Assembly (NCBI GenBank): GCA_040902745.1
Contig: JBBDWR010000012.1
Location: 44,171 to 108,170 of the forward strand
Length of the DNA stretch: 64,000 nucleotides
From: Actinomycetota bacterium
Lineage (GTDB): Bacteria > Actinomycetota > UBA4738 > HRBIN12
Direction of reading: 5' to 3'
Below, piece by piece: positions 20,684 to 48,032 of this stretch. Under the pieces are notes generated by a model. It was not told where the DNA came from and did no database searches. It saw only the letters and a program-made list of their open reading frames with translations. Both the position numbers and the translations under genes were made by a program. How positions within the stretch are numbered: position 1 is the first letter of the stretch; every line of letters begins with the position of its first letter.

Positions 20684-20839
20684 TCAGCAACTCCCCATGT
20701 ACTCGATGTGATGTGGATCCCTCGTCGCTCCCAGATCACGGATCCCACGACCGGTCAGTAGAGCTCACGGACGAGGTGAGTCCGAGGAAGCCGGCGCCGA
20801 TGAGGCGACGGCGTTCGGGCCCACCTCGTCACGACCAGC

Positions 20840-23640: not shown

Positions 23641-23667
23641 AGGTGGTGCACCTCCTGGGAACTTCGT

Positions 23668-24858: not shown

Positions 24859-24878
24859 GGTCCGCTACCTTTCGCTGG

Positions 24879-27775: not shown

Positions 27776-27849
27776 CGCGATACCCCTCCTTAGTGTGCCG
27801 GCCGAGCGACCGTACACGCCTTGTCGCCCGCACGGTAGGCAAGATGACA

Positions 27850-27869
27850 GTAGATTGTCAACCGTTAAC
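27850..27869. promoter_or_regulatory. palindromic operator site (15/20)
   Basis: GTAGATTGTCAACCGTTAAC, about 75 nt upstream of the SBP start at 27775. Confidence 0.5.
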
Positions 27870-28110
27870 CGAGCATCTCACCCTGCCCCCGTCCTCCACC
27901 GTGACCTCGGGTGACAACACGAGCGATCACCACACCGGCCGCGGCTCGCGTCAGATGCGCATCGTCTGCCCGCACCATCCCGACGATCCGGCCGTGTGTG
28001 TCGGGATCCGGTCCCATGTCGGTTGCTTCGGAGCCTTCGCCTCCAGCCATGCGACCCCCTCTCGTGATGCCGCGATCGTAGACGGGTCCGTTGCCGACGG
28101 TCGAACCGCC

Positions 28111-28824: not shown

Positions 28825-28903
28825 CGGTCGTTCCTGTCCCCGGGCTCATCGAGGGGCTACGGTAGGCCCCGCTACCTGCATTGACCGCCGCATCCTAGCA
28901 CCC

Positions 28904-28923
28904 CTAGACTGTCGACAGTCAAC
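28904..28923. promoter_or_regulatory. palindromic operator site (18/20), best match, in the GntR gene's own divergent promoter
   Basis: CTAGACTGTCGACAGTCAAC, between GntR (start 28824) and the aminotransferase (start 28988). Confidence 0.7.
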
Positions 28924-28987
28924 CGATGACGCTCCGCAGGGCGGCGCCCCGAGTGCGTGGCAGCGGGCACGAGGAGGTGCACTCTCC

Positions 28988-31624: not shown

Positions 31625-31655
31625 GTTCGCTCTCCTTCCACCGTGCCGTGCGCGA

Positions 31656-32561
31656 TCACGCGCCTGCCTCCAGCTTCTTGATCCTCGCCGCACGGTACCC
31701 GCCGAAGGCTACTGCGGCCGAAAGCACGAGCAGCAAGAAGCTCATCGCCGAACCGATCCCCCAGTTGCCCGCCTCGAGCACTTGTTCCTGGATCGCGTTG
31801 CCGATCATGCTGCCGCTCGTGCCGCCCACGAGGGCGGGCGTCGCGAACTCGGAGAACATCGGGATGTAGACGATGATGATCGCGACGAATATCCCCGGGG
31901 CGGCGAGCGGCAAGAGGATCTTGCGGAAGCGCGTGGAGAAGCGCGCGCCGAGATCGTCCGCGGCCTCGAGCAGGTCGGGCTCCACAGCCTTCAACGACGC
32001 GTAGATCGGGATCGTCGTGTAGGGGATGTAGGTCGTCGACAGCACGATGATCACGGCGAGCTTGGAGAAAAGCAGCACGTCGATCGGTGCGTCGATGACT
32101 CCGATCGCCTGCAGCGTGTAGTTGATCACCCCTTCGCGGCCCAGCACCATGCGCCATGCATAGACACGGATCAGCGGATTCAGCTCTCCCGCCAGCACGA
32201 AGAGGAGCAACAGCAACAACTCGTAGCGGGCTCGCACGCAGAACGCCAACAGGTACGCGATCGGCATCGCGATCGCGAGCATCACCGCCATCGAGATCGT
32301 GCAGATCAGCACGGTGTTCCACGCGAACTTGAGGTAGGCCGGTTCGCTGAGGATCGCCTGGTAGTTCTCCAACGTGAACCCGCCCGTGCCAGTGATCGAG
32401 CGGTGTTGGAAGCTCATCCACAACAACAGGCCGAGGGGAACGCCGAACAAGACCAGCAGCCACATGCTCGGGGGGAGTGCGTACCCGAACACGCGCACCC
32501 CGACACGCCCGGTGGCCGCCGGTTTGCCCTGCGGATCGAGGCTGAGCTGCTCGGTCGCCAT
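31656..32561 (-). CDS. ABC transporter permease (PotB-like), second system
   Basis: Paralogous by eye to 24879..25757 (WLLVLFGVPLGLLLWMSF.., EAADDLGARFSTRFRKILLPLAAPG). Confidence 0.85.
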   Translation of the reverse strand: MATEQLSLDPQGKPAATGRVGVRVFGYALPPSMWLLVLFGVPLGLLLWMSFQHRSITGTGGFTLENYQAILSEPAYLKFAWNTVLICTISMAVMLAIAMPIAYLLAFCVRARYELLLLLLFVLAGELNPLIRVYAWRMVLGREGVINYTLQAIGVIDAPIDVLLFSKLAVIIVLSTTYIPYTTIPIYASLKAVEPDLLEAADDLGARFSTRFRKILLPLAAPGIFVAIIIVYIPMFSEFATPALVGGTSGSMIGNAIQEQVLEAGNWGIGSAMSFLLLVLSAAVAFGGYRAARIKKLEAGA

Positions 32562-33371
32562 CTACTTCACCTGCCCCGCGAAGACTCCGGCGACGGCGTC
32601 GGCGTCCAACGATCCGCCCGTTCGCTTGGAACCTGCCGCAAGCCGCCACGCGACCAGCACGATGACGACTTGCAACACGGAGACCAACGTGGAGATCGCG
32701 TTCACGATCGGCACATTCTGGGCGTGGCGCAGCGTCGAGAACACCCAGATCGGGAAGGTGATCTCGAACCCACCGGTGAAGAAGCTGATCACGAAATTGT
32801 TGAATGAGTAGCTGAAGGCGAAGATCGCCGACGCCGCGAGCGCCGGCATCACGTGCGGCAGGATGATGTAGCGCAACACCTCCCGCGGCGTGGCGCCCAG
32901 GTCGAGCGCCGCCTCCTCCACACGGCGGTCGAACCGCACGAGCCGCGCGCCGACGATCGCCGCCACGAGCGGGAACGCGACCGTGATGTGCATCAGCGTG
33001 ATCGTCTTGAGGCTCAGTGGCACGTTGATCCTGTTGAAGAAGATCAACGCGCCGACGCCGATCAGAAGCCACGGAACGACGAGAGGAGCGCCGATGAGAC
33101 CAGCAACCGGACCGCGGGCCTTGTAGCGGAACCGCGTCACGGCGAAGGCTGCCAGGGTCCCGAGCAGCAGCGACACCGGCATCACGACGAACGCGACCCC
33201 GACCGAGTTGCGCAGCCCCTCCAGCAACACGGGGTTCGATAGAGCGTCGGTGTACCACTGGCCCGTGAAGCCCTCGAACGGCAGCGCGATGATGATCGAA
33301 TCGTTGAACGAGAACAGCGCGAGGATCAGCAGCGGCCCGTACAGCAACAGCACGACGATCGCGAGGAACAC
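32562..33371 (-). CDS. ABC transporter permease (PotC-like), second system
   Basis: GTG start 33369-33371. No canonical start exists further upstream in frame. LALFSFNDSIIIALPFEG, EAALDLGATPREVLRYIILPHVMPAL. Confidence 0.8.
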   Translation of the reverse strand: MFLAIVVLLLYGPLLILALFSFNDSIIIALPFEGFTGQWYTDALSNPVLLEGLRNSVGVAFVVMPVSLLLGTLAAFAVTRFRYKARGPVAGLIGAPLVVPWLLIGVGALIFFNRINVPLSLKTITLMHITVAFPLVAAIVGARLVRFDRRVEEAALDLGATPREVLRYIILPHVMPALAASAIFAFSYSFNNFVISFFTGGFEITFPIWVFSTLRHAQNVPIVNAISTLVSVLQVVIVLVAWRLAAGSKRTGGSLDADAVAGVFAGQVK

Positions 33372-33453
33372 CAGGCGGAGGACGAGCAGTAACCCCGGCT
33401 TGTGTCGGAGGACGAACCGTTCGACCGAACTCGGCGGCCGGGACCGGTCGACC

Positions 33454-33481
33454 CCGGAGGATCCGCGGTCGATCCCTCCGG
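33454..33481 (-). other. stem-loop in the SBP-permease intergenic spacer
   Basis: CCGGAGGAT..ATCC(C)TCCGG imperfect 9-bp inverted repeat inside the 165-nt gap. Possibly an mRNA stability or processing element. Confidence 0.3.
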
Positions 33482-33536
33482 TCTGCGTCGACCGGACCAG
33501 CGTGTCGTCCTGGCTCAGCGCCTCACCCCGTCCCGC

Positions 33537-34646
33537 TCACGCGGCCTTGAACTCGCGCCACACCTGCTGCCAGGCATCGTAGTTCTCCGGGATCGTGTAG
33601 GGGATCGCGTTCTCGAAGCTCCCGGGATCCTCCAACCCGGCCTCCTCCACGATCTTCGGGTCGACCGCATCGAGCGTGTCCTGGTTGGAGACGAGGTAGA
33701 AGAAGTTCTCCGCCTGCCAGGCCTGCGTCTCGGGTTGCGCGTAATGATCGATCAACGCGTATGCCGCGTCGACATTCTCCGCGTTCGCGCCGATCCCGTA
33801 CCCGCAGGTCCACGTCAGCTGACCCTCGGAGGCGAGCGAGTACTCGACCGGCTCGCCCTCGGCCTTCAACGTCTCGGTCGATCCCTTGTAGCCGGGCGCC
33901 ACGACCACGATCTCGCCGGTCTTGAACAGGTTGGCTTGGTCCGCGTCACCTTTCACCAAGCTGCGGAGCAGTGGCTTCTTGTCGACCAGGAACTGCTTGA
34001 CCTGCTCCAGCTCCGCGTCGTCCAGGTCGAGCGGATCTTCGATGCCGAGCGCCATCGCAGCGACCGCGATCCCCGACAGTGGGTCGTCATCCAGGCCGAT
34101 CCGGCCCGAGTAGGCGTCGTCGAAGACGCTCGCGTACGAGTCGAACCCGGCGGGAACTTCTTCCTCGTTGTACATGATGCCGCTGGTGCCGCCGACCATC
34201 GGCGCGAGATACACCTCGCCGTCGACGGTGACCCCTTCTAGCTCCTTGAACGCCGGAAACATCTGGTCCCAGGCCTCGATCCGCGACGTGTCGATCGGCT
34301 GGAGCAGACCGAGGTTCACCATGCGGACGGTGTCCTCGACACACACGTTCACCACGTCTGCCTGGAACCCGCCCTGCAGCTTCGTCACGGTTTCATCCCC
34401 GCTCGCGAAGGCAGCGGTACGGACGTCCACGTCCGGGTTCGCCTCCTCGAACGGGTCGAGCAGCTCCGGCTCGAAGGCGTCCTCGTACGCGAAGAAGGTG
34501 AGGGAGCCCGAGACCTGTCCGGGATCGGCCGACTCTCCATCGCCGGACCCCGGCGCCGAGTCGCTGCTGCACGCCGCGGCCACCACCATCAGAACAGATA
34601 CAACGACGATCGAGCGCGCGGTCGTACGAGTACGTGGGGCAGTCAT
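33537..34646 (-). CDS. PotD-like substrate-binding lipoprotein (paralogue 2 of 3)
   Basis: Start ATG 34644-34646 (MTAPRTRTTARSIVVVSVLMVVAAAC lipobox). ATGA overlap with the M20 gene stop. Confidence 0.85.
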   Translation of the reverse strand: MTAPRTRTTARSIVVVSVLMVVAAACSSDSAPGSGDGESADPGQVSGSLTFFAYEDAFEPELLDPFEEANPDVDVRTAAFASGDETVTKLQGGFQADVVNVCVEDTVRMVNLGLLQPIDTSRIEAWDQMFPAFKELEGVTVDGEVYLAPMVGGTSGIMYNEEEVPAGFDSYASVFDDAYSGRIGLDDDPLSGIAVAAMALGIEDPLDLDDAELEQVKQFLVDKKPLLRSLVKGDADQANLFKTGEIVVVAPGYKGSTETLKAEGEPVEYSLASEGQLTWTCGYGIGANAENVDAAYALIDHYAQPETQAWQAENFFYLVSNQDTLDAVDPKIVEEAGLEDPGSFENAIPYTIPENYDAWQQVWREFKAA

Positions 34647-35785
34647 ACCGCTGTCTCCTTCTGGGTCGTCGGTGCCGCCGCCAGGGATCCGACGTCGGCG
34701 ATCAGTGCGGAGAAGACACGAGCACATCGGACAACCTCTCGGACGTCGATGTGCTCGTCTGGGTGGTGAGCCGTCCGCAGGTGTCCAGGGCCGAAGACGA
34801 TGACCTCGGAGTGCGACCGATCGGAGAAGCTGTGTGCGTCGGTCCACGAGGGCATCCGTGTGTAACCGGGCTCACGGCCGATCGCGCTTTGGCTCGCTCG
34901 TGCCAGCGCTCGCGGGAGCGCGGCTCCGGGGGAGGTCTCCCACCATCCGCCCGAGTCCTTGAGTTGGAACGTCGCGTCGGAGGCGGCGCAGCGCTCCTCG
35001 ATCTGGCGCCGCACCTCGTCCAGGCTCGGCTCACCGAAGACTCGGGCCGACAGGTAGAAGTCCGCTCGGTCCGGGATCGCGTTCACGGGCTGCGCGGAAT
35101 GCATCCGTTGCACCGAGGTCATGTTGCGCCCGGCGATAGGATGCTCGTGCGTCGTGAACGGCAGCGTCTGCAGCTCAAGGAGCAGACGGGCGGCCTTCTC
35201 GACGGCGTTGTCCCCCTCCTCGATCAGCGAGCCGTGCACCGACCGACCGCCGACCCGCACCCAACCGTCGACGAACCCGGTCTCGGTGAGCGCGATATCG
35301 AGCTCGGTGCCCTCCGAGGCGACCACGAAGCGCGGACGCAGGTTGTCGGCCATCGACCGCGACCCCTTGCCCCCGATCTCCTCGTCGACGACGAATCCGA
35401 GCGCCACGGGCAGACGCTCGAACTCGACGCCGCTCTCGCGCGCCAACACAGCACCGAGGAGGATCGCCACGGCGCAGCCTTTGTCGTCCTGTGCGCCGAG
35501 ACCGCGCACGATCGTCCCGTCGACCCGCGCGCGGCCCGCCCAGTCCCACGTGGGGACGATCGTGTCGATGTGCGCGGTCAAGAGCAGATCCGGACGATCG
35601 TCGTGACCGACCAGCACGTTGGGCCCGGCGCCGGCGACCGACTGCACCTGGACGGGGAGATCGAGCTGGGAGCACCGTCCGGCGAGGTACTCCATCGCCT
35701 CGTGCTCCTGGTCGGAAACCGACGAGATCTCGACCAGGCGGACGAGTTCCTCGGTTGCCCAATCGATCGCGGCCGCGTCTTCCAC
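34643..35785 (-). CDS. M20-family metallohydrolase (ArgE/DapE/amidohydrolase type), paralogue A
   Basis: GTG start after AGAGGGGGA. LLLTAHIDTIVP..GLGAQDDKGC..VVDEEIGGKGS..WTDAH. Confidence 0.85.
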   Translation of the reverse strand: MEDAAAIDWATEELVRLVEISSVSDQEHEAMEYLAGRCSQLDLPVQVQSVAGAGPNVLVGHDDRPDLLLTAHIDTIVPTWDWAGRARVDGTIVRGLGAQDDKGCAVAILLGAVLARESGVEFERLPVALGFVVDEEIGGKGSRSMADNLRPRFVVASEGTELDIALTETGFVDGWVRVGGRSVHGSLIEEGDNAVEKAARLLLELQTLPFTTHEHPIAGRNMTSVQRMHSAQPVNAIPDRADFYLSARVFGEPSLDEVRRQIEERCAASDATFQLKDSGGWWETSPGAALPRALARASQSAIGREPGYTRMPSWTDAHSFSDRSHSEVIVFGPGHLRTAHHPDEHIDVREVVRCARVFSALIADVGSLAAAPTTQKETAV

Positions 35786-35868
35786 GCCTGTCCCCCTCTG
35801 GAGGGGTGCCCGGCGCCGGTGTGAGCCGCTGCGGGTGCGCCCCTCTTCGCCCTGAAGGCGAGCCTAGG

Positions 35869-35888
35869 CCCGATTGTCGACAGTCAGC
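35869..35888. promoter_or_regulatory. palindromic operator site (14/20)
   Basis: CCCGATTGTCGACAGTCAGC, about 85 nt upstream of the M20 start at 35785. Confidence 0.5.
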
Positions 35889-35987
35889 AAGATAGGTGGG
35901 TGCCGGATCACGGTGGTTTCGGGGGCGAATAGTGCCGGATATCGCAGGTGGTCACGCGCAGCCCCTAGCGGGACTCGGCAGATATGA

Positions 35988-36479
35988 CTACTCCTGAACG
36001 AGCAGACGTGTCCAGCGGTAGCTGTGCTTGGCCACGTTGAGGATCGTGAACGTCTCGATCCCATCCACTCCGGGAGCCGTCCGAACACCCTCCTCGAGGA
36101 CGCGGAACATGTGATCGTTGTCGCGGCAGACGACCTCGATCAGCAGGTCGAACGAGCCGGTACACACGGCGATGTAGTCGACCTCGGGGATGTCCTGCAG
36201 CGCCTCGACCGCACCCGCCACCGATCCGCCACGCACCCGGATGCCGATCTCTGCGAAGACGAGCCCCAGTGCCAGCGCGTCCGACACGGCGACGACCTGG
36301 ACGACGCCACGACGCACCATCCGCGCATACCGGTTTCGCACCGTCGCCTCGGACAGCTCGAGGTTGCGGGCGATCTCGGTGAACGGCCAGCGGCCGTCCT
36401 GGTTCAGCTCCTCGATGATCTGGACGTCGGTCTCGTCCAGCGCCCCCCGCAGCACGGGCGTCACCTCCATAGTCGTCAA
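35988..36479 (-). CDS. Lrp/AsnC-family transcriptional regulator
   Basis: LDETDVQIIEELNQDGRWPFTEIARNLELSEATVRNRYARMV HTH plus a C-terminal RAM-like domain. Start is TTG 36479 or ATG 36470. Confidence 0.85.
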   Translation of the reverse strand: MTTMEVTPVLRGALDETDVQIIEELNQDGRWPFTEIARNLELSEATVRNRYARMVRRGVVQVVAVSDALALGLVFAEIGIRVRGGSVAGAVEALQDIPEVDYIAVCTGSFDLLIEVVCRDNDHMFRVLEEGVRTAPGVDGIETFTILNVAKHSYRWTRLLVQE

Positions 36480-36491
36480 CCGCCTCGAAGG

Positions 36492-37598
36492 TCAGGCGGC
36501 CTTGAAGGTACGCCACACCTCGAGCCACCGATCGTAGTTCTCGGGGATCTGCAGCGCGATCGCGGCATCCAGTTGTTCCGGCTGGTCCAGTCGGAGCTGC
36601 TTCACAAGTTCGGGATCGAGCTGGTCGAGCGTCTCCTGGTTGGAAACGACGTAGTTGTAGGTCTCCGCGTAGAACGCCTGCGCCTCGGGACTGGCGTAGT
36701 AGTTCAGCGCGGCGTAGGCAGCGTTCAGACTCTCCTCGGACACGTCGGCCCCCAAGGACATGCCGCACACCCACGCCATCGAACCCTCGGCGGACGACAT
36801 CGCCACGGGGATGTCCTCGCGCTGCATCGCGGCGACGTAGTCGTGGTAGCCGAAGCCCGCGACGATCTCGCCGGTGCGGTAGAGGTTCAAGAAGTCCGCG
36901 TCGCCCTTGAACAGCGTGCGCACCTGATCCTTGTGATCGAGCAGGTACTGCTGGATCTCGTCGAGGTCGGCGTCGTCCAGGTCGTAGGGGTCGGTGTGGC
37001 CCAGAGCCAGCGCGACCAGCGGGATCGTCTCCTGCGGACTGTCGCCCAGGGTGATCTTGCCCGTGAGGGCGGGATCTTCCATCAGCTGGCGGTAGGAAGT
37101 GACCTCGCCCGCCTCTTCGGGGTTGTAGATGATGCCGCTCGTGCCGCCGACGTTGGGGATCATGTAGACCTCACCGTCGTAGGTGATCCCCGACAGTTCG
37201 CGGATCTGTGGGAACAGCGAGTTCCACGCCTCGATCCGGCTCGTGTCGATCGGCTGGATCAGTCCGGCCTGCACCATGCGGGCGGTCTCCTCGGTGCAGG
37301 AGTTGATCACGTCGGCGTGGAACCCTCCCTGCAGCTTCGCCACCGCCTCGTCGTTGTCGGAGAAGTTCGCGGCACGGACCGTGACCTCGGGGTTGGCCTC
37401 CTCGAACGGCCCCAGCACCTCGGGAAGGATCACGTCCTCGTAGCCGTAGATGGTGATCTCGCCGCTGGGCTGACCCGCGGTCGTTCCGCCCTCGCCGCTC
37501 GCGTCCTCCGCGCCGTCGCCGTCGCCGGAACAAGCGGTCGCCACCAAAGCGAGGGCGAACATCACCACAGCGAGCCGTCCGAGTCTGAGTCCAAGCAT
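36492..37598 (-). CDS. PotD-like substrate-binding lipoprotein (paralogue 3 of 3, orphan: no adjacent permease/ATPase)
   Basis: Start ATG 37596-37598 (MLGLRLGRLAVVMFALALVATAC lipobox). Confidence 0.85.
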   Translation of the reverse strand: MLGLRLGRLAVVMFALALVATACSGDGDGAEDASGEGGTTAGQPSGEITIYGYEDVILPEVLGPFEEANPEVTVRAANFSDNDEAVAKLQGGFHADVINSCTEETARMVQAGLIQPIDTSRIEAWNSLFPQIRELSGITYDGEVYMIPNVGGTSGIIYNPEEAGEVTSYRQLMEDPALTGKITLGDSPQETIPLVALALGHTDPYDLDDADLDEIQQYLLDHKDQVRTLFKGDADFLNLYRTGEIVAGFGYHDYVAAMQREDIPVAMSSAEGSMAWVCGMSLGADVSEESLNAAYAALNYYASPEAQAFYAETYNYVVSNQETLDQLDPELVKQLRLDQPEQLDAAIALQIPENYDRWLEVWRTFKAA

Positions 37599-37664
37599 CC
37601 CCGTCCCCCTGTTTGCGCGAGCGCGTCCGCCGCTGCCGACGAACCTTGTGCGTTTCCTACACCG

Positions 37665-37684
37665 GTCGACGGTCGACTGTCTAC
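37665..37684. promoter_or_regulatory. palindromic operator site (17/20)
   Basis: GTCGACGGTCGACTGTCTAC, between the orphan SBP (start 37598) and the divergent SDR (start 37730). Confidence 0.6.
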
Positions 37685-37729
37685 CCACTGTGCTAGCGTC
37701 CGGCGCGCATCAGATGGGAGGCTGCAGCG

Positions 37730-38579: not shown

Positions 38580-38665
38580 TCGTCAACGTGTTGACGAACA
38601 TCTCGTCAAGACGCTGACGGTTCGTCGCCACCACCCCGCAGCAACAACTCGTCAACGTATTGACG
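38580..38665. repeat. three related inverted repeats (CGTCAA-N-TTGACG type) in a convergent intergenic region
   Basis: TCGTCAAC-GT-GTTGACGA at 38580-38597, CGTCA-AGACGC-TGACG at 38604-38619, CGTCAA-CGTA-TTGACG at 38650-38665. Confidence 0.6.
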
Positions 38666-38675
38666 GGAGCACCAC

Positions 38676-39539
38676 CTATGTGACGTCGGGACGGTGCAAG
38701 GGCTGCCCCTTCACACCCAGATCAGCGATCGCCAGGTAGTCCTCACCGACGTTCGCCGTCACCGCGCGATCGAGCGCGTCACCCACGAAGCACATGTTCG
38801 TCGGCGAGTTCAGCCGTTTCGCCTCCCAGTCGTCGACGACGACCTCGAGGGTGCCGTCCGGACGCAGCACGTCCAGGCGGTCGGGACGGTAGTAGGCGAT
38901 GTACATGTTCCCCTCGTTGTCGAACACCAAGCCGTCGGGCACCGTCCGGGCCATCTCCACGACCAACTCACCCGAACCCGCCGAACCGTCTGGCTCGATC
39001 GGGATCCGCCATAGGCGCCCACCCGTGTGCACCTCTTCGGGGTGCGATTGCGCGACCCACAGGGCCGACCCATCCGGCGCCAATGCGCACCCGTTGGGAT
39101 ACCCGCCCACGGCGTCCGACCACACGGACGTTTCGCCGCCCCCGGGCTCCACGCGGAACACCACGCCGTTCAGCGACGACGTCACGTACATGACCCCCGC
39201 CGCATCGAATACCGGCCAGTTCGGCTCGTCGATCGGCGTGCCGGGAGCTCCCGCCGTGTAGGTCTCGACCTTGCCCGTGTCGGGGTCGATCCGCGACACG
39301 TCCTGGCGCACGTAGTCGCACGCGTAGATGTGGCCCGCACCGTCGACCGCCACCCCGAGCACGACCCCGCCCGTGTTCGCCACCTCACGCGAGGACCCGT
39401 CCAGGCCAACCGAGTAGATCTGTCCTCCCTCGCCGCCACAGTAGATGCGGCCGGCGAGCGGATCCCAACACAGCCCTTCCGGGTGCTGCAGGTCCCCCGC
39501 CAACGGCGAGAAGACCTCCGGTGCGAACAGCGCGTCCAT
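38676..39539 (-). CDS. SMP-30/gluconolactonase/LRE-like beta-propeller hydrolase
   Basis: 287 aa. PEGLCWDP..GRIY..G.IY.., YPNGCALAPDGSALWVA, VPDGLVFDNEGNMYIA. Confidence 0.8.
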   Translation of the reverse strand: MDALFAPEVFSPLAGDLQHPEGLCWDPLAGRIYCGGEGGQIYSVGLDGSSREVANTGGVVLGVAVDGAGHIYACDYVRQDVSRIDPDTGKVETYTAGAPGTPIDEPNWPVFDAAGVMYVTSSLNGVVFRVEPGGGETSVWSDAVGGYPNGCALAPDGSALWVAQSHPEEVHTGGRLWRIPIEPDGSAGSGELVVEMARTVPDGLVFDNEGNMYIAYYRPDRLDVLRPDGTLEVVVDDWEAKRLNSPTNMCFVGDALDRAVTANVGEDYLAIADLGVKGQPLHRPDVT

Positions 39540-39564: not shown

Positions 39565-40023
39565 CTACGTCTCGCCGCGTGCCTTCTTCATCGCTGCCTT
39601 GACCTCGTCGGTGTCCAACGTCATCTCGAGGAACCCGACCTGCTCTTCGTAGACCGACGCATCGGCCTGCTCTTTCACCTCGTATTCGAAGATGTGCAAC
39701 ACGGAGAGCCCCAACTGGACTCCCGCCAACGGACCCACCCAGGCCGGATCTCCGTCCCGCACGGTCTCGGCCGCGACTTCGACCGCTTCCGCGTCGGCCG
39801 CGCCGAGCATCACGACGAGGTTCTCGTCACCGTGCTCGTCGACGATCCGTTTGATCAACGCCTGGTTCTCCGGGTCCATGGCGCCGGACGCCGTTCAGAC
39901 GAAGCACTCCGTGCGGACCTCGATCACCTCGGCGCCGGCGCTCTTCGCCACCTCGGCGATCGCCTCGCCGGGTACGGAGTCGCGCTCGCCGAGGGCGATC
40001 ACCTTCTTGCCTTTCAGCTCCAT
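39565..40023 (-). CDS. grdA: glycine/sarcosine/betaine reductase complex selenoprotein A (GrdA) with in-frame UGA = Sec43
   Basis: Reading through TGA 39895-39897 gives [83 protein letters not shown]. This matches the GrdA CFVUTAAGAMD core as I remember it. The ORF track shows only the post-UGA part, 39565..39879. Confidence 0.85.
39856..39886 (-). promoter_or_regulatory. candidate SECIS stem-loop downstream of the grdA UGA
   Basis: mRNA +9..+39 after UGA folds to a 10-bp stem (2 G-U pairs, one bulged A) with a 10-nt loop ACCCGGAGAA. An alternative is the 5-bp UCCGG/CCGGA hairpin. The exact fold is uncertain. Confidence 0.4.
39895..39897 (-). other. in-frame UGA selenocysteine codon of grdA
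   Basis: TGA sits in the conserved C-F-V-U-T context. The frame is continuous from ATG 40021-40023 to TAG 39565-39567. Confidence 0.8.
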
Positions 40024-40066
40024 GTCGGTTGCTTCACCTCCCCTCGTGTGCGTCTCACGCGCCACC

Positions 40067-40447
40067 TCAGGCGCCTTGGTCGCGAAGATGTTCGGGGACC
40101 GGCAGTCCCACGGCCGGTGCGCCGTCCAACAGTCGGCGGATCGCCGCTTCGATGTCGTCGGGCGTCGCGGCGTTGCTCGTGATGCGCTCCACCTCGACGC
40201 CGTCGCGCATCGTGATGTAGGCAGGCAGTCCCGCCACGCGAAGGTCCCGGCAGATCTTCCGGTTGTCCGGTGCGTTCACCTTCACGAGCGTCACCTCGTG
40301 CGCGTACTTTTCGCCGAGCGCCTCCACCGCGGGCATCAGCGCCAGACACGGCTGACACTCCGGTCCCCAGATGTCGACGAGGACGTGGCCCTCGTTGACG
40401 AGGTCGTCGAACTCCTCGACGGTCGCTTCGATCGCCATCGTGTGCAT
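40067..40447 (-). CDS. thioredoxin with atypical WGPECQPC active site
   Basis: ATG 40445-40447 after AGGAGGGGAGGGA. 126 aa. [28 protein letters not shown]. The long 5' ORF extension (to 41599) overlaps grdC and was rejected. Confidence 0.85.
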
Positions 40448-40473: not shown

Positions 40474-41793
40474 CTAGGCCTCGAGCGTTACGGACGCGCC
40501 GTCCCACAGCCGGGTGAGTCGGCCGAGGAACAGCGATCCCTTCGCGATCAACATCGTCGTATCGAGCTTGCCGGCCTGCATCCGCGCCAGCGCGTGCGGC
40601 AACCACGGCACCGCCGACGCGATGTGTCCCTGCGTCGGCGAGAACCCGGGCAACCCGTGCGCTCTCGCGAACCCGGCGATCTCGCTCTTGTCCATCTCGC
40701 CACGGACAACCCCGAGTCCCGCGAGCATCTTGTAGTTGCGGTCGGGAACGTCCCCGCCGCCCTGAGGCTCGGTGATCTCGGGGTTGTGGATCTCCACCGC
40801 GTACGTACCGATGTCGGAAACCCGCAGCCCCATCGCGTCCAGCGGCGCACCGACGAGCGACTCGAGCTGGCCCTGCTGCGCGTTGCCCACGCGCACCGGC
40901 ATGCGGCCGATCGCATCTGTGCGCAGCACGGGTCCGTTCGACCCGTCGGCCGGACCCAGCAGCACCGCCATCCCGGCGAGGACGTCCTCGATCACCGGGA
41001 ACCCCTTGTCGAGGGCGCCCTCGAACTTCATCCCGAGCTTGCCAAGCGACCCGCCCGCGACGAGCAGCACGCGCTCCTCGACCCCCGCCTCGATCAGGGC
41101 CGCGGCCACGGCCATCGCGTGCACGGGCGCGGCGCAGAACGACTTCACGTCGATCCCGCTGGCGTTCACGACCCCGCAGTGTTCGGCGACGGCCTTCGCG
41201 AGGTTGCCGCCTCCGCGCTGATAGCGATCGCCGATCGCCTCCTCTCCGCAGCCGATCGCGTGCGTGATCGACCCCGGATCCACGTCGCTGGTCTCGAGCA
41301 AGTGCCGCAGCGCATGCACGGCGCTCGCCTTGATCGTGTAGTTCTCCAGCAGCACGTGCGCCTGCAGCGATTCGTCGAGAGCGTGGGCGGGGGCGAACGC
41401 TCCCACGACCTCGCCGCCGGCGAACAGTCCGAGTTCGCCTTTGCCGGGATCGGGCTCGTCTTTGAGGCGCACCAACTCGAACTGATCGATCTCGGCGAGC
41501 AGCTCGTAGAAGCGGTTCTGCTCCATCACGTCGCCGAACGGTCCGGCCGGCGACGCGCCCTCGACGGGGTGTTGCCACCAGGTTCGCGGACGCTCCCACA
41601 GGTCATCGGGCGCCAGCGCCCCGACGAACACCTGGTTCGGCGGATAGGCGACCGCGTCCTCGTACGAGCGGAGCGCACCGAACAGTTCCGGCCACCGCGC
41701 CTGTTCGCGCCACGGCTTGGACCCGTACCGGACCAGATCAGGGACGTGCTCCAGCACGAACGACGCCGCGAGCACGGCGGCCCGTCTGCTCAC
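40474..41793 (-). CDS. grdC: glycine reductase complex component C, beta subunit-like (GrdC; thiolase/KAS-III-like fold)
   Basis: SFVLEHVPDLVRYGSKP..LRSYEDAVAYPPNQVFVG..GDRYQRGGGNLAKA..DVKSFCAAPVHA..LVAGGSLGKLGMKF..KGSLFLGRLT. GTG 41791-41793 (GGGAGG 6 nt upstream) overlaps the grdB stop (GTGA). ATG 41808 is an alternative. Confidence 0.75.
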   Translation of the reverse strand: MSRRAAVLAASFVLEHVPDLVRYGSKPWREQARWPELFGALRSYEDAVAYPPNQVFVGALAPDDLWERPRTWWQHPVEGASPAGPFGDVMEQNRFYELLAEIDQFELVRLKDEPDPGKGELGLFAGGEVVGAFAPAHALDESLQAHVLLENYTIKASAVHALRHLLETSDVDPGSITHAIGCGEEAIGDRYQRGGGNLAKAVAEHCGVVNASGIDVKSFCAAPVHAMAVAAALIEAGVEERVLLVAGGSLGKLGMKFEGALDKGFPVIEDVLAGMAVLLGPADGSNGPVLRTDAIGRMPVRVGNAQQGQLESLVGAPLDAMGLRVSDIGTYAVEIHNPEITEPQGGGDVPDRNYKMLAGLGVVRGEMDKSEIAGFARAHGLPGFSPTQGHIASAVPWLPHALARMQAGKLDTTMLIAKGSLFLGRLTRLWDGASVTLEA

Positions 41794-43097
41794 GCGGACA
41801 CCTCCCACACGGTCGCCGGCTCCACGTCGGTCTCAACCATCTCGAGCGCGCGTTCCACGATCTTGGTGCGCAGTGCCACTTCTTCCTCCTCGTCCAGCGA
41901 CGGATCCCCGGTCGGGTTCGTGATCGCCGGCCCTCGCACGATCCGGCTGGCTCCCGCCATCTGTGCGATCGTCGGCAACGACGTGATCGTCGCCACCGGG
42001 ATGCCTTTCCGTTCGATCTCTTTCGCAAGCGTCGCCCCGCAACGCGTCCCTGTGCCTCAGGTGCCGGTCAACACCACCGCCTGGACTCCGGCATTGACCA
42101 GCTCGGCCGCGATCTCCTGGCCGAAGCGCGTCGCGGACGCCACGGGCGTGTCCACGCCCGTCGTCGTGTAGAAGGTCGGATGCAACCGGCCGATCCGTCC
42201 CTGGGTCTCCAGCCTTCGCACCGCGTCCAGCGGCACGAGCCGATTGGGATCGGCATTCCCAGCGGTCGTGTCGAAACCTCCGTGGACGGTTTCGTAGGCA
42301 TCGGCCGACATTGAGGCCACTCCGTCGATGGGATAGGCCAGCCAGGCGTGCGCCCGGCGAGAGACGAGGTGATCCGGGTTGCCCTGGGGAACACACCCAG
42401 CCTCCGACACGAGCGCCACCAGCGCCTCGCTCACGTCCGGCACCGGCGACGCCGGCGGCACGACTTCGAACGCAGGCGCCACTTCTGTCTCGAAGGCCTC
42501 GCCGCGGAGCTTGGCGAGCACCAGATCGAGGGCCCGGTCGGCTCCCGACCGATCGACGACCTCGTTGCGTCGGATCCCCCGGGGCAGGTAGCCCGCCTCT
42601 TCTGGCGAGCCCGGGTCGCGCCCCTCGGCGAGCGCCACACCGATGGCGGCGAGCACGGGAAGCGCGTCCTTCATCCCCGCGACGTTCGCGGTGGTCGGAA
42701 CGACGTAGGCACCCCCCTCGGCGGCGATCACCCCGGGGTTCTCGGGGAACATCGCCGTCACGACGGGGATCCCACGTCGCGAGGCCTCGCGGGCGAGCAT
42801 CCCGCAGGCGTAGCCGTAGCGGCCCGAGTTGAAGGCGGGCCCGCACACGAGTACGTCGGGCGCCTCCTCCTCCAGCCAGGCAAGCAGGGTTGCGAGCGCG
42901 GGATCCTCGTGTTCGGCGAAGTAGTCGTCTCCGCACGCCAGCGTGACGTCGACGGGCAGTCCCAGCGGCGTCAGCCCTCGGCCGGGTCCCTGCGGCCCCT
43001 CGAGGCGCACCGGCTCGTGACCTGCGGCCTCCTCGGCACCGAGACCTGCGAAGAATTGGTTCATGTAGTGGACGACGCGAACCGCGGCCGGGCTCAT
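41790..43097 (-). CDS. grdB: glycine/sarcosine/betaine reductase selenoprotein B family (GrdB/GrdF/GrdH) with in-frame UGA
   Basis: MSPAAVRVVHYMNQFFAGLGAEE.. N-terminus. Read-through of TGA 42057-42059 gives ..AVVLTGT-U-GTGTRCGATLAKEIERKGIPVATITS..NPTGDPSLDEEEE... The ORF track splits it into 42057..44066 and 41790..41996, which are in the same frame. 435 codons, typical GrdB size. Confidence 0.85.
42029..42045 (-). promoter_or_regulatory. candidate SECIS hairpin downstream of the grdB UGA
   Basis: GCGUUGC-GGG-GCGACGC (7-bp stem incl. one G-U). The stem starts 11 nt after UGA and the G-rich apical loop starts at +19, consistent with bacterial SECIS geometry. Confidence 0.55.
42057..42059 (-). 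other. in-frame UGA selenocysteine codon of grdB-family gene
   Basis: TGA sits in the conserved LT(S/G)T-U-G-T-x-T-R-C-G-A-T context. Confidence 0.8.
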
Positions 43098-44377
43098 ATC
43101 GTCACTCCCCGCAGTCTGCCGTCCCCGAGTTGCGTCGCGGCGTCGAGGTAGTGCAGCACCGGCACCTGTGCCGGTGCTTCGTGATCCGTTTCGCCGATCA
43201 CGCTCGCGGGCGTCCAGCCGTCCGCGCGCTCCAGAACGTTGCCGGTCGACACCAGTGCGTCTGCTTCTGCGACGTGGTCGGTCAGGCCCCCCTCTTCCGC
43301 GACGATGCCCACGGCGCGAACGCCGAGTTGTTCGCACGCGCGCAGGGTGAGCATCGTGTCGGTGTGGGAGTTGCCCAGCGAATACGTCGTGCAGATCGCG
43401 GCATCCGCGCCGAGTTCCTCGGCTGCGATGTGCGCCGCGCCGTCCGCCATGCGCCGTTTGTCGTCCGCGTCGTCCAGGTATCCCTGGGTCAAGACCGCGC
43501 CGGGACACACCAGCGCGGTGCCGTGCTCGTTTAACAGGCGATGCAGCAAACGCGACCGTTGGATCGTTCCCGTGCTCACGCGCGCCGCGGGTGAGTCGTA
43601 CGCGCCCGCGGTCAAGGCACCATCGAGCAGCGCTCTCGGATCGACGGCGCAGGGACTCACAAGGTCCACGGGCGCTCCGCGCAGGTAGGTCGTCAGCCCC
43701 GGTCCCTCGGCCGTGAACTGCAGGATCGGCACCACCACGGGCAGCTCCCCGGCCACTTCCCCGAGCGCGAACACGGACTCGGTATCCGCGTCGCTGTCCT
43801 CGGCCGTAGCCGAGGCCAGATCCCGGGCCGCTCGGAGCAGTGTGCGGCGGGCGGCCGCGTCGACGTCGGCGAGAGAGGCGCCCTGCGCGGCTACCAGCTC
43901 CAGGACCAGGTTGATCGTCGATCCCCACGGGGTCAGAGATGCCCCCGATCCGTCCATGTCGACGTAGCTGGCCGGGATCGGATCGTCGGGATCGATCAGC
44001 GCTCCCATGTCGAGCGTCGACAACACCGCGATGCCGTCGAGCCGATCTGTTCGTCCCGTGCCGCATAGCGCGTCGGCGGGGCCGAGCACGCCGGGGAAGG
44101 TCGCCGCAGGATCGTCCGCCTTGACCGACGGCACGACGGCGTCGAGGACGTTCGCGATACGAACGGAGTCACCGGGACGAACGACGTGCGCGCGCAACGA
44201 GCCGAGCGCGGGTTCGTCGGAGCACAGGGACTCGACGACGTCGAGGTCGATCTCGAGGAGAGGATCGCCGGGAGTGCGAGAGACGCGCCCTTCCCCATGG
44301 CGCACCTCCCGCACCGCCCGGACGTCGAAAGCCGCGACGGTGAGCGGCGACGCAGAGATGGTACCCGGTCTCGGCAT
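43094..44377 (-). CDS. glycine/sarcosine/betaine reductase component B alpha/beta-type subunit (GrdE/GrdG/GrdI family), lacking the canonical Asn-Cys autoprocessing site
   Basis: ATG 44375-44377. 427 aa. RPGDSVRIANVLDAV.P..K...FPG, LLDGALTAGAYDS.., TQGYLDDADDKRR.., NSHTDTML. ATGA overlap with grdB. The long 5' ORF extension was rejected. Confidence 0.75.
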   Translation of the reverse strand: MPRPGTISASPLTVAAFDVRAVREVRHGEGRVSRTPGDPLLEIDLDVVESLCSDEPALGSLRAHVVRPGDSVRIANVLDAVVPSVKADDPAATFPGVLGPADALCGTGRTDRLDGIAVLSTLDMGALIDPDDPIPASYVDMDGSGASLTPWGSTINLVLELVAAQGASLADVDAAARRTLLRAARDLASATAEDSDADTESVFALGEVAGELPVVVPILQFTAEGPGLTTYLRGAPVDLVSPCAVDPRALLDGALTAGAYDSPAARVSTGTIQRSRLLHRLLNEHGTALVCPGAVLTQGYLDDADDKRRMADGAAHIAAEELGADAAICTTYSLGNSHTDTMLTLRACEQLGVRAVGIVAEEGGLTDHVAEADALVSTGNVLERADGWTPASVIGETDHEAPAQVPVLHYLDAATQLGDGRLRGVTI

Positions 44378-44379
44378 CC

Positions 44380-46035
44380 TCACACCATCCCCCGCTCGGG
44401 GTCCCTCTGTGGCCTGCGTCGCGACCTGCGAGCATCTCGGAGGACCTCCCGGGCGCAATTGCTCCCGTTCGCTCCGGTCACCCCGCCTCCCGGATGTGTC
44501 CCCGCGCCGCACAGGTACAGGCCGCGAACCGGCGAGCGGTACGCGCCGTAGCCGCGGATCGGTCGCAAGAACAGCAATTGGTCCGGCGACATGTCGCCGT
44601 GCATGTGATGGCCGCCGGTGAGCGCGAGCCTTCGCTCGAGATCGAGCGGCGACAAGACCTCGCGATGCAGCACCGATCCCAAAACGTTGGGGAACGCTTC
44701 GCCCACGCGTTCGATCACGCGGTCGGCGATCGCGTCCTTGCGTTCGTCCCACGTTCCGTCGGCCAGTCGGTACGGCTGTGAACGCACGCCGACCGTGACG
44801 ACGTGCTGTCCCGGTGGCGCGAGCGAAGGATCCGACACACTCGGGATACACAGCTCGATGTGCGGCTGGTCGGCCGGTTCGCCCGCCTTCGCGTGTGCCT
44901 GGTCCATGTCGAGGTCCCGCAGGGGCTTCGTGAGCTGGATCAATGCCCGGTGGTAGGGCTGCTCACGGGCCCCGGCGGCCGATCCGGCCCCCGGGAGATC
45001 GTCGAACCCGGCCAGGCGCGGCAGCTCGGAAACGCCAAGGTTGATCTTCATGCTGGCTCCGTCGGTGCGGTAGGAGCGGATCGCCCCGACCACCTCGTGC
45101 GGGAGCTCGCGCTCCCCCACCAGGCCGAGGAATGTCCGTTTGGGATCGGCGTTGGACAACACGAGGTCGGCAAAGAGCTCCTCTCCCGAGCCGGCCAGCA
45201 CCACGCCCGTCGCCCGGCCGCCGCGGATGACGATCCGTTCCACCTCGGCGTCGGTGCGGATCAACACGCCGCGTTCGGTTGCGGCCTCCGCCATGAGCCT
45301 CGTGACCTCTCCCATGCCGCCGCGGACGAATCCCCAGTTCTGCTGGCCGACCCCGCTCGCGTGATCGTGCAACAACACGTACGCGGTGCCGAAGGCCTTC
45401 GGCCCGGCGAGTGTGTTGCTGATCGACTCCCAACCCAGTGCGGATTTCAGCTCGTCGGACTCGAACCACTCGTCGAGGTACTGCGCCATCGAGGTGGTGA
45501 ACAAGAAGCTCAGCTCGGTCAGGCGCTTGCGGTTGCGCAGGCCGAGTCGCGCGAACCACGCGAGCGCCGAAAGATCCCGCCTGCTCGGCGCGCGCGGGTC
45601 GGGCGGGGTCCGGTCGAACACCGGCAGGATCGCCTCCGCGAGGCCGGCCAACCGCTCCTCGAACCGTGGGTAGGCGCGCGCGTCCCGTTTGGAGAACCGC
45701 GCGATCTCCTCGCTCGCCGCTCCAACGTCACCGTGCAAGAATAGGTGCGCGCCGTCCGGATACAGGTTCAGCGAAGGCGTGGCCGCGTCGACGTGCAGGC
45801 CGCGTTCCCGCAGCCGGAAGTCCCGCCAGATCGCGGGCCGCAGCATCGAGAGTACGTAGGCGCCCGGAGACGCCCGGAACCCCGGCGCGAACTCCTCCGT
45901 GGTGCACGCGCCCCCGACCAGCTCGCGACGCTCGAGCACGCACACGCGAAGACCCTCGCGGGCCAACGAGAACGCGGCGACGAGTCCGTTGTGTCCGCCG
46001 CCCACGATGACGACGTCGTAGCGGTTGGTCGTCAC
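44380..46035 (-). CDS. FAD-dependent oxidoreductase, CrtI/phytoene-desaturase-like (PYROXD2-like) paralogue 1
   Basis: GTG start. YDVVIVGGGHNGLVAAFSLAREGLRVCVLERRELVGGACTTEEFAPGFRASPGAYVLSMLRP.. and C-terminal GLYLCGAGTHPGGGVTGANG. Its stop is 2 nt from the grdE-like start. Confidence 0.8.
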   Translation of the reverse strand: MTTNRYDVVIVGGGHNGLVAAFSLAREGLRVCVLERRELVGGACTTEEFAPGFRASPGAYVLSMLRPAIWRDFRLRERGLHVDAATPSLNLYPDGAHLFLHGDVGAASEEIARFSKRDARAYPRFEERLAGLAEAILPVFDRTPPDPRAPSRRDLSALAWFARLGLRNRKRLTELSFLFTTSMAQYLDEWFESDELKSALGWESISNTLAGPKAFGTAYVLLHDHASGVGQQNWGFVRGGMGEVTRLMAEAATERGVLIRTDAEVERIVIRGGRATGVVLAGSGEELFADLVLSNADPKRTFLGLVGERELPHEVVGAIRSYRTDGASMKINLGVSELPRLAGFDDLPGAGSAAGAREQPYHRALIQLTKPLRDLDMDQAHAKAGEPADQPHIELCIPSVSDPSLAPPGQHVVTVGVRSQPYRLADGTWDERKDAIADRVIERVGEAFPNVLGSVLHREVLSPLDLERRLALTGGHHMHGDMSPDQLLFLRPIRGYGAYRSPVRGLYLCGAGTHPGGGVTGANGSNCAREVLRDARRSRRRPQRDPERGMV

Positions 46036-46038
46036 GTC

Positions 46039-46848
46039 CTAGGACGCCCTCACCGCACTGCCACGGCGCGCCACGTATTCGTCGCAGCGCGCGATCAGAT
46101 GGTCGCGCCCGAAGCTCGGATCGTGTCCTCCGTGAACCATGCGCACGGAGAACTCGCGGAGGCGCCGCATCGATGCCACGAAGTCGGGGATCGAGGAGTT
46201 CGGTAGCTCGTCCAGCAGTTCGTCGTCCCGATAGACGGTGTCGCCGGAGAACAAGGTCCCCGTCGCCTCGTCGAACAGCACCATCGAGCCCTGGGTGTGG
46301 CCGGGCGTGTGGAACACGGTGAAGGAACGGTCCCCGAGGTCGACGGTGTCGCCTTCGGTGACGGTGCGGGTCGGCTCGGTGGCGATCAGCGAATATGACG
46401 ACAGTTCGTAGCCGGGCGAGGGCACCGCGTCGATGAACGAGTCCGGCAACGGTGTGCCGTCCTTGGTCAGGGCGTCCTGGAAGTCCTGCGGCATCTCCGA
46501 GGGGATCAGCGTCCCTCCGTCTCGCGCGTTGGCCACGTCCGGAGCTTCCAGCTCGTGGGCGATCCGCTCGTCGAACTCGTGCAGTCCGCCCATGTGGTCG
46601 CTGTGCGCGTGCGTCACGACGGCGATGATCGGCTTGCCCGGATCGGGGCGCAGCGCGTCGACGAACGGCTTGAGCGGAGCGACACCGTTCGCCGTGTCGA
46701 CGAGCAGATCGGCGTCCCGGCCGGGAACAAGCCACACGTTGCCGCGGATCCATGCGTACATGTGCGGCTCGTTGATGCGGAACACGCCGGGCTCGACTTC
46801 GACGGCCTCGAACCACGCCTCGTCGACCGGCAGCGATGATGCGCCCAT
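46039..46848 (-). CDS. MBL-fold metallo-hydrolase
   Basis: ATG 46846-46848 after AAGGGAGG. THAHSDHMGG (HxHxDH), HTPGHTQGS. Confidence 0.85.
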   Translation of the reverse strand: MGASSLPVDEAWFEAVEVEPGVFRINEPHMYAWIRGNVWLVPGRDADLLVDTANGVAPLKPFVDALRPDPGKPIIAVVTHAHSDHMGGLHEFDERIAHELEAPDVANARDGGTLIPSEMPQDFQDALTKDGTPLPDSFIDAVPSPGYELSSYSLIATEPTRTVTEGDTVDLGDRSFTVFHTPGHTQGSMVLFDEATGTLFSGDTVYRDDELLDELPNSSIPDFVASMRRLREFSVRMVHGGHDPSFGRDHLIARCDEYVARRGSAVRAS

Positions 46849-46859
46849 GGCGCCTCCCT

Positions 46860-48032
46860 TCAGCGCGACCGGCCCGCGGGTGACGTGTCCCGCCGGCGGG
46901 TCGCATCGGCGACCAGCTGGTCGGAATCGGACAGCAGGTTCGCGAGCACGCGCGCGCACTCCACCACGTCGTGGAGGGCCACGTGCTCGTCGGGTCGGTG
47001 CGCATTGCGCAGGTGCCCGGATCCGAACACCACGGTGTCGGATCCGGCGATGTCGACGAAGTTGTGCGCGTCGGTCCAGGCGAGCATCCCGTGCTCGCCC
47101 GGCTCGGTACCCCGCACGGACGCGATCGCGCTTCGCATCGCGCCCGCCAGGGGGGCATCGGGCGGGGTCTCGAACGGCTCGGAGATCTCCACGACGTCGA
47201 TGCGGGCATCGTAGCCCGCGGCGATCGTTCGCACTTCGGTGAGCACGTCTGCCGCCGACGGGCCGCCGGCGGTCACCCGGATATCCACGTGGAGCTCGGC
47301 ACGCTCCGGAACGACGTTGAGCCGCTGTCCGCCGTGCAGTTCCCACAACATCGGGAAGTTGCGCCCGAGCGTGCGGTGGGTGTGGGAGGTGAAGTCGGCG
47401 CGCTGCAGGTCGGTCGCGAACGCGACGGCCTTCTCGAGAGCGTTGTCACCTTCCTCGCGCAGGGCGCCGTGCACGGCTCGGCCTTCGAACCGCGCCCAGA
47501 ACTCCGTGAACCCGGCCTCGGCGAGCCCGAGATCCAGCTCAGTGCCTTCGAGCCCGACAACCATCGCCGGACGCAGGTCGTCCGCCATCCGCATCGACCC
47601 CTTGCCACCGACCTCCTCGTCGACGCACAGGCCGATCCCCACGGGCATGTGTGCGAGATCGACCCCGTCGTCGAGCGCCATCTGGAAAGCCAGCATCGCG
47701 GCGACAACGCACCCCTTGTCGTCCTGGGCGCCGAGGCCGTAGAGGAGATCCCCTTCGAGGGTCGCGACCGGCGTGTGATCCCATTCCGGCCGGATCGTGT
47801 CGACGTGTGCGGTAAGCAGCAGTCCGGGAGACCGATCCCACCCGACCAGGAGGTTGTCCGCCGAGCCCTCCACCTGCTGGCGCGTGGACGGGAATCCCAG
47901 CTCCTTGGCCCGGCTCTCCAGGTAGGACACGATCTCATGCTCCTCGTCGGAGTACGAGGTGATCTCCACCTGGCGAACGAGCTCCTCACGTGCCCAATCG
48001 AGCGCGACCGCGGTTTCCACGGCAGATAGCAT
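46860..48032 (-). CDS. M20-family metallohydrolase, paralogue B
   Basis: Aligns by eye with 34643..35785 (LDWAREELVRQVEITSYSDEEH, LLLTAHVDTIRP, GLGAQDDKGC, CVDEEVGGKGS). Start is ATG 48032 or GTG 48020. No SD before either. Confidence 0.8.
   Translation of the reverse strand: MLSAVETAVALDWAREELVRQVEITSYSDEEHEIVSYLESRAKELGFPSTRQQVEGSADNLLVGWDRSPGLLLTAHVDTIRPEWDHTPVATLEGDLLYGLGAQDDKGCVVAAMLAFQMALDDGVDLAHMPVGIGLCVDEEVGGKGSMRMADDLRPAMVVGLEGTELDLGLAEAGFTEFWARFEGRAVHGALREEGDNALEKAVAFATDLQRADFTSHTHRTLGRNFPMLWELHGGQRLNVVPERAELHVDIRVTAGGPSAADVLTEVRTIAAGYDARIDVVEISEPFETPPDAPLAGAMRSAIASVRGTEPGEHGMLAWTDAHNFVDIAGSDTVVFGSGHLRNAHRPDEHVALHDVVECARVLANLLSDSDQLVADATRRRDTSPAGRSR

Follow-up and report, generated by a model that had tools for sequence, protein, structure and literature searches.

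A predicted GrdA selenoprotein hidden by an in-frame UGA, and its non-canonical Grd operon, in an uncultured actinobacterium

On the minus strand of the 64-kb stretch of DNA analyzed here (in the following called the window), the frame at 39565-40023 is very probably the grdA gene of a glycine/sarcosine/betaine-type (Grd) reductase complex, with the UGA at codon 43 being translated as selenocysteine (Sec). Taken by itself, this GrdA is ordinary, UGA-encoded Sec in GrdA being a textbook case of a selenoprotein that is already known, and its value is corrective; the greater novelty lies in the system around it. When all observations are taken together, they may be read as a Grd-type selenoenzyme that has not been described so far and belongs to uncultured soil Actinomycetota, in which protein B would lack both the pyruvoyl-forming and the resolving Cys, GrdC would occur without GrdD, and the grdA UGA would be decoded without a SECIS element of the consensus type. 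This joint reading is put forward tentatively, as a possibility to which we give somewhat less than even weight.

Reading Frame and Family Identity of GrdA

The mechanical ORF list of the window holds only 39565..39879 (104 aa, ATG start) at this locus. The longer frame starts from an ATG at 40021-40023, continues through the TGA at 39895-39897 and ends at the TAG at 39565-39567, which corresponds to 152 aa; re-reading of the coordinates from the sequence returned the frame, the ATG, the ribosome-binding site and the TGA as they had been given in a preceding sequence-only reading of the window. In the read-through product, residues 39-44 read E-C-F-V-U-T, with Cys40 encoded by TGC at 39904-39906 and U by the in-frame UGA. 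The resulting C-F-V-U conforms to the C-x-x-U redox motif, and CxxU is listed as the GrdA motif in a 2026 review of prokaryotic selenoproteins (PMC13188914).

For profile searches, Sec was substituted by Cys in the GrdA product. Pfam GRDA (PF04723) matched it over the whole model (positions 1-147 of 147; E 1e-60, 204 bits against a cutoff of 22) and the NCBIfam equivalog NF040748 over positions 1-149 of 151 (207 bits against a cutoff of 130), with the profile match running unbroken across the TGA codon. The N-terminal 42 residues, for which a likeness to GrdA had been predicted, are covered by this match, and the 152-aa read-through product is a full-length GrdA, as had been proposed. In addition, the codon-position pattern of the genes in the window (GC1 about 0.7, GC2 about 0.47, GC3 about 0.87) is seen on both sides of the grdA TGA. 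A sequence search of the PDB found no solved relative of GrdA.

The full-length family match, the size of about 150 aa, the position of C-x-x-U and the UGA-encoded Sec are the same as in classical GrdA, and so is the encoding alongside grdB, grdC and thioredoxin (PMC13188914). Identity to the recovered homologues from Firmicutes and Treponema amounts to about 55-59%. What differs from the classical GrdA hosts is the organism, an uncultured high-GC actinobacterium (67.5% GC in the window).

The sequence-only reading had also stated that standard ORF calling sees just the 104-aa tail of the protein, and this holds beyond the ORF list of the window. Among the 120 best protein-database relatives, 116 are C-terminal fragments of GrdA with a length of 103-106 aa, and in a public assembly (Logan, SRR27977660) the identical ORF is split into a 23-aa fragment and the 104-aa product. 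As GrdA of this clade is called as the 104-aa tail in nearly all public gene calls, its active site is lost from these entries. A window-wide scan for TGA-interrupted frames flagged three TGAs, the one in grdA included. The flagged TGA at 36492 looks like an ordinary gene boundary and the one at 2277 like an antisense artefact.

Conservation of Codon 43 and of the Upstream Segment

Scanning one genome per species yielded a set of 49 related loci. About 30 of them are uncultured Actinomycetota MAGs, mostly from soil surveys, with 78-89% GrdA identity; the others belong to Treponema, Chloroflexota, Symbiobacteriaceae, Clostridia and Deltaproteobacteria, plus one Bathyarchaeota MAG. Codon 43 is TGA in 48 of the 49 loci (six or more lineages), preceded by 42 intact and conserved codons, and Cys in the lone exception, the archaeal locus L044. 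Both the C-x-x-U motif with its UGA and the upstream frame, as postulated in the sequence-only reading, are thereby found conserved across phyla.

Over the 41 codons before the TGA, variability among the actinobacterial homologues is 0.058, 0.044 and 0.198 at codon positions 1, 2 and 3, respectively, i.e., position 3 varies 3.4-4.5 times more than positions 1 and 2, and pairwise codon differences comprise 4799 synonymous versus 2368 non-synonymous changes. As judged from these comparisons, the 42 codons preceding the grdA TGA evolve as coding sequence and are under purifying selection.

These data bear on the question of whether the TGA might be a true stop, with grdA having decayed or split and translation giving no more than the 104-aa C-terminal ORF, if anything. 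Mechanical ORF calling and the public gene calls do yield the 104-aa product, and no consensus SECIS follows the grdA UGA (see below). However, the recurrence of the same TGA at codon 43 in 48 of 49 loci from distant phyla, the purifying selection on the 42 upstream codons together with the conserved Shine-Dalgarno sequence and ATG, and the HMM match that runs unbroken across the TGA all speak against a stop, and the 104-aa product would be devoid of the CxxU active site. We consider the chance that the TGA terminates translation here to be negligible.

Variants of the Sec site were also encountered. Zhang et al. (2006) reported no Cys form of GrdA; the sequence ECFVCTAAG was found in three metagenome proteins (P0001-P0003) and in the Bathyarchaeota MAG (L044:369-815), and one homologue of the protein set P0001-P0004 carries Gly at the Sec site. 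In two MAGs (L045, L046, around 6001-6440), grdA, grdC and the grdE-like gene contain apparent frameshifts, which may be assembly indel errors or real decay.

A Second Hidden Selenoprotein With a Covarying SECIS in grdB

A second in-frame TGA (42057-42059, minus strand) is located within grdB and corresponds to U347. ORF calling joins the N-terminal part of grdB to an upstream extension, giving a 669-aa ORF, and loses the last 88 residues. For the mechanical ORF the family models end at position 345 of 431, whereas the read-through product covers positions 1-431. This TGA fell below the thresholds of the scan for TGA-interrupted frames and was established separately.

The bSECISearch-model consensus comprises a loop of 3-9 nt, a stem of at least 4 bp, a distance of 16-37 nt from the UGA and a minimum free energy of -7.5 kcal/mol or lower, in addition to a G in the first two loop positions (PMC13188914). 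The hairpin following the grdB UGA, with a 7-bp stem, a GGG loop, 18 nt from UGA to loop and -8.7 kcal/mol, fits every criterion. It occupies nt 14-30 after the U of the UGA, and at this position a hairpin that agrees with all four bSECIS criteria is present in 33 of 34 sequences. Covariation was evaluated on 26 distinct sequences from four phyla: 98.9% of the positions in the stem are paired, as compared to 24-60% with the partners slid, and two pairs are compensatory (G-C to U-A in 4 sequences, U-A to C-G in 8). The covariation score was reached by none of 500 shuffles, and the compensatory changes recur in Actinomycetota, Firmicutes and Chloroflexota. Since grdB combines a conserved UGA with a consensus SECIS hairpin that shows covariation, Sec appears to be decoded in this lineage in the SelB-type manner. 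For the operon to which grdA belongs, SelB-type decoding is thereby supported by direct comparative evidence.

The Stem-Loop Downstream of the grdA UGA

For grdA itself, the sequence-only reading had drawn a stem-loop downstream of the UGA (candidate H1). Such a structure can be drawn, 10-38 nt after the UGA, and it is the RNAalifold consensus of 29 actinobacterial sequences; a role as SECIS is unsupported with regard to consensus fit, covariation and excess stability alike. The covariation term is about 0, and nearly all paired positions are invariant coding positions, the single variable pair changing from G-C to G-U. Across phyla, 70.8% of the positions are paired, no compensatory change is observed, and the score was matched by 500 of 500 shuffles. 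The fold energy is not better than that of shuffled sequence (z -0.5 to -1.0), and an upper stem of 3 bp with a 10-nt loop beginning with AC fails the bSECIS criteria. H1 cannot be called a SECIS on present evidence.

A bSECIS-type hairpin after the grdA UGA was found neither in the window nor in any of 27 actinobacterial homologues, in a test that as implemented needs contiguous stems and could miss interrupted ones. In the same test, almost no grdA homologue of the Treponema or Firmicutes type has a qualifying hairpin. Chloroflexota and Deltaproteobacteria grdA do have a clear consensus hairpin (CUUGACCUGGAAGGUCAAG; 8-9 bp with a GGA loop in L032, L039, L040 and L043). The GGA loop triplet of this hairpin is kept in all lineages (grdA codons 44-56, alignments A1/A2, columns 30-32; 39869-39871 in the window), whereas the stem around it is lost in Actinomycetota, Treponema and Firmicutes. 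Across phyla, RNAalifold returned no consensus structure after the grdA UGA.

Two alternative hairpins, H2 and H3, begin merely 10-13 nt after the grdA UGA and, like H1, do not fit the bacterial consensus (PMC13188914). H2, a 4-bp CNGG/CCNG stem, is 81-88% paired in two registers and was rejected with its loop being too near the UGA; as the two registers are interchangeable, its covariation is ambiguous. Single-sequence folds after both UGAs gave z-scores between -1.0 and +0.8, which is uninformative in 67% GC sequence. Permutation of synonymous codons resulted in a mean z of -0.32 for grdB, the positive control, and -0.26 for grdA, and since the positive control also fails, fold-energy tests are powerless in this composition.

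A subset of bacterial selenoprotein genes is described as not fitting the SECIS consensus model (PMC13188914), and the classical grdA genes of Firmicutes and Treponema are known selenoprotein genes (PMC1794560). Because these known genes also fail the SECIS consensus, the failure of the actinobacterial grdA is no argument against Sec. Another conceivable explanation is that the UGA is read through by an amino acid other than Sec, e.g., Cys or Trp inserted via a suppressor or near-cognate tRNA. Such a read-through would be in line with the missing bSECIS-type hairpin, with the tolerance of Cys at site 43 that is indicated by the Cys-containing homologues (P0001-P0003, L044), and with the fact that Sec machinery was not found within the window: selA, selB, selC, selD, tRNA-Sec and trxB are all absent from its 64 kb, and Rfam at gathering thresholds and ARAGORN gave no matches over its whole length. 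Nevertheless, the adjacent grdB UGA with its textbook, covarying SECIS implies SelB-dependent Sec decoding in the same operon, and in the same test the strict consensus is not reached by the classical grdA genes of Firmicutes and Treponema either. Insertion of an amino acid other than Sec is regarded as highly improbable, and from the comparisons above we infer that Sec is inserted at the grdA UGA. The actinobacterial clade would also offer a natural test case for SelB reading a UGA without a consensus SECIS.

Organization and Neighborhood of the Operon

The operon on the minus strand comprises, in this order, a FAD oxidase-like gene, a grdE-like gene, grdB, grdC, a thioredoxin gene, grdA and an SMP-30-like gene, all of which are tightly coupled (Table 1). 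The FAD oxidase-like gene is probably the first gene of the operon, as its stop is located 2 nt before the grdE-like ATG. The stop of the grdE-like gene overlaps the grdB start as ATGA, and an alternative GTG start of grdC at 41793 overlaps the grdB stop as GTGA. The genes for protein B, protein C and thioredoxin, alongside which a grdA is expected to be encoded, are all found immediately upstream. In contrast to the classical order grdE-A-B-C-D, the order is grdE-B-C-trx-A, with no GrdD adjoining.

Table 1. Features of the grdA locus, with positions counted from the first letter of the window
Feature	Position	Strand	Basis
FAD amine-oxidase/CrtO-like oxidoreductase	44380..46035	-	Stop 2 nt before grdE-like ATG
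grdE-like (component B alpha/beta proprotein family)	43094..44377	-	Pfam Gly_reductase, 191 bits
grdB-like selenoprotein B, 435 aa, UGA at 42057-42059 read through	41790..43097	-	TIGR01918
Putative grdB SECIS hairpin, GCGUUGC-GGG-GCGACGC	42029..42045	-	Covariation and bSECIS criteria
grdC (component C beta subunit)	40474..41808	-	NF040746; Pfam DUF5940 and ACP_syn_III
Thioredoxin, 126 aa, active site C-Q-P-C	40067..40447	-	Pfam Thioredoxin
grdA Shine-Dalgarno sequence, GGGGAGGTG	40035..40043	-	GGAGGTGA-type motif before ATG in all actinobacterial homologues
grdA, predicted selenoprotein A, 152 aa with one UGA read through	39565..40023	-	Sequence; Pfam GRDA; NCBIfam NF040748
Predicted Sec43 codon (UGA) of grdA	39895..39897	-	TGA at same codon in 48 of 49 homologous loci
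Stem-loop drawn in the sequence-only reading (candidate H1)	39857..39885	-	RNAalifold consensus, actinobacterial sequences
SMP-30/gluconolactonase-like gene	38676..39539	-	Family match; 25 nt after grdA stop
Terminator-like hairpin after SMP-30-like gene	38650-38665		

GrdC reaches 509 bits on NF040746 (cutoff 450) and qualifies as GrdC on this basis. The operon thioredoxin, the active site of which is unusual (C-Q-P-C, within WGPECQPC), has its best NCBIfam match in the clostridial (Grd-associated) TrxA model at 86.8 bits, below the cutoff of 140, and is presumed to be the reductant of oxidized GrdA.

The order grdE-like, grdB, grdC, trx, grdA is kept in about 25 actinobacterial MAG loci. Conserved neighbors in the actinobacterial loci are genes for SMP-30-like, SDR and polyamine-type binding proteins, and in every case the actinobacterial Grd operon is accompanied by genes of the SMP-30-like, SDR, FAD-oxidase-like and polyamine-type transporter kinds. 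In L004 and L022 (1800-4000), the FAD-oxidase-like and SMP-30-like genes, grdC, trx and grdA are present with no detectable grdE-like gene or grdB between them. The operon of the window is surrounded by an island for nitrogen-compound catabolism (19775-37700 and 44380-48010). Among the genes of this island are two PotABCD-like ABC transporter sets, three class-III aminotransferases, an aldehyde dehydrogenase, a 3-hydroxyisobutyrate-dehydrogenase-like gene, two M20 deacylases (similar to YgeY), an MBL-fold hydrolase and an Lrp regulator.

Protein B, GrdD, and the Likely Substrate

As far as can be judged from the family tests, GrdA and GrdC are canonical while protein B is non-canonical. Full-length GrdB passed a single model, the subfamily model TIGR01918 (432 bits). 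It failed the glycine equivalog TIGR01917 (407 bits against a cutoff of 602) and the model for sarcosine GrdF (432 against 800). With regard to betaine reductase GrdH, it reached 370 bits (cutoff 775) and carries UxxGxxC instead of UxxCxxC. Sequence motifs for glycine-GrdB and GrdF have been published by Nobu et al. (2022; PMC9751293); the window GrdB matches neither of them, whereas Firmicutes-type controls (L028, L030, L031) match the GrdB motif. The Sec motif of the window GrdB (42036-42059) is U-G-T-G-T-R-C, as in all actinobacterial GrdB homologues, compared to U-G-T-C-T-R-C in the controls. Over the loci L001-L047, the actinobacterial form is UxxGxxC, the Chloroflexota form UxxSxxC and the canonical form UxxCxxC. 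The +3 Cys that is missing from the actinobacterial and Chloroflexota GrdB is presumed to be the resolving Cys.

Similarly, the GrdE-like protein is without the Asn-Cys autocleavage site: the canonical SGN-CVSACDKNTT aligns with AGAYDSPAARVST in the window and with NGAYDWPGVRNVT in its relatives, and the pyruvoyl-forming Cys is also absent from the actinobacterial and Chloroflexota GrdE-like homologues. The only models matched by this protein are those of GrdG, FarE and PrdA, all weakly (GrdG 118 bits against a cutoff of 780).

Searches by tblastn with two GrdD queries detected no GrdD in the 64-kb window (best E about 0.5). Nor did the queries detect one in the actinobacterial, Chloroflexota and Deltaproteobacteria loci at a distance of up to 6 kb from grdA (best E about 0.5), whereas GrdD was found after GrdC in the Firmicutes-type loci L028, L030 and L031. 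In the Symbiobacteriaceae MAG among these (L028:7849-10485), a single open frame of 878 codons spans GrdC and GrdD and may represent a fusion. An acetate kinase gene was not found in the 64-kb window.

The Grd clusters of Chloroflexota/Dehalococcoidia and Deltaproteobacteria (L032, L039, L040, L043), which were compared with Nobu et al. (2022; PMC9751293), share much of this organization. In these clusters, grdC immediately precedes grdA and GrdD is missing within 6 kb; their GrdB is without the +3 Cys (UxxSxxC in their case) and does not match the glycine-GrdB motif, and their GrdE-like protein is without the cleavage Cys. They differ in their GrdA, which is 44-54% identical to that of the window, and in the clear consensus SECIS of their grdA, which has been lost from the actinobacterial one.

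Since the protein B genes are non-canonical, the Grd substrate of the operon is probably not glycine. The absence of the cleavage Cys from the window GrdE-like protein follows the same logic as the unprocessed GrdI in the betaine reductase of P. acidaminophilum, the protein B of which (GrdH/GrdI) likewise uses the same GrdA and protein C. Andreesen (2004) reportedly describes this GrdE homologue of betaine reductase as not being processed to a pyruvoyl enzyme, on account of the good leaving group of betaine. If the actinobacterial complex resembles betaine reductase in this respect, its substrate may have a good leaving group in place of a primary amine.

Alternatively, the operon might encode an ordinary glycine reductase, with the missing GrdD and TrxB being encoded elsewhere in the genome. 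GrdA and GrdC do score above their equivalog cutoffs, GrdB and the GrdE-like protein fall into the right Pfam families, and Treponema grdA is also found apart from other grd genes. On the other hand, GrdB fails both the published glycine-GrdB motif that the controls pass and the GrdB equivalog, Gly takes the place of the +3 Cys of UxxCxxC in all actinobacterial homologues, and the GrdE-like protein does not possess the Asn-Cys site from which the pyruvoyl group, a requirement for the binding of primary amines, is formed. A glycine reductase of the ordinary kind is considered unlikely, and a substrate other than glycine remains the favored interpretation.

Proposed Mechanism and Significance

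The Grd reaction cycle is known from established biochemistry (Andreesen 2004; reviewed in PMC13188914). When transferred to the window, the pair of GrdE-like and GrdB-like proteins would, as protein B, transfer a carboxymethyl group onto Sec43 of GrdA, where it would form a selenoether. This selenoether would be reductively cleaved by Cys40 of GrdA, the acetyl unit would be handed to protein C (GrdC), and the Se-S bond left in GrdA would be re-reduced by the co-encoded thioredoxin. For the Grd complex of the window, the catalytic cycle as well as the substrate are predictions drawn from sequence, and the textbook cycle may not apply in full because protein B fails the tests that define a glycine reductase.

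In the literature searched, nothing relevant was found on Grd in Thermoleophilia, Rubrobacter or Acidimicrobiia or on systems without GrdD, nor a description of this Grd system with its non-canonical protein B.

Re-annotation of the operon would restore two selenoproteins, GrdA and GrdB, and would show the use of Sec in a widespread group of uncultured soil Actinomycetota. If the joint reading of the operon holds true, it would imply that the substrate belongs to a new class and is probably a carboxymethyl compound whose leaving group is good, not a primary amine, and the chemistry downstream of GrdA would possibly be different as well. The coupling of a conserved GrdA and GrdC to a protein B that passes none of the tests defining a reductase for glycine, sarcosine or betaine points to an unexplored reductive reaction in soil bacteria.
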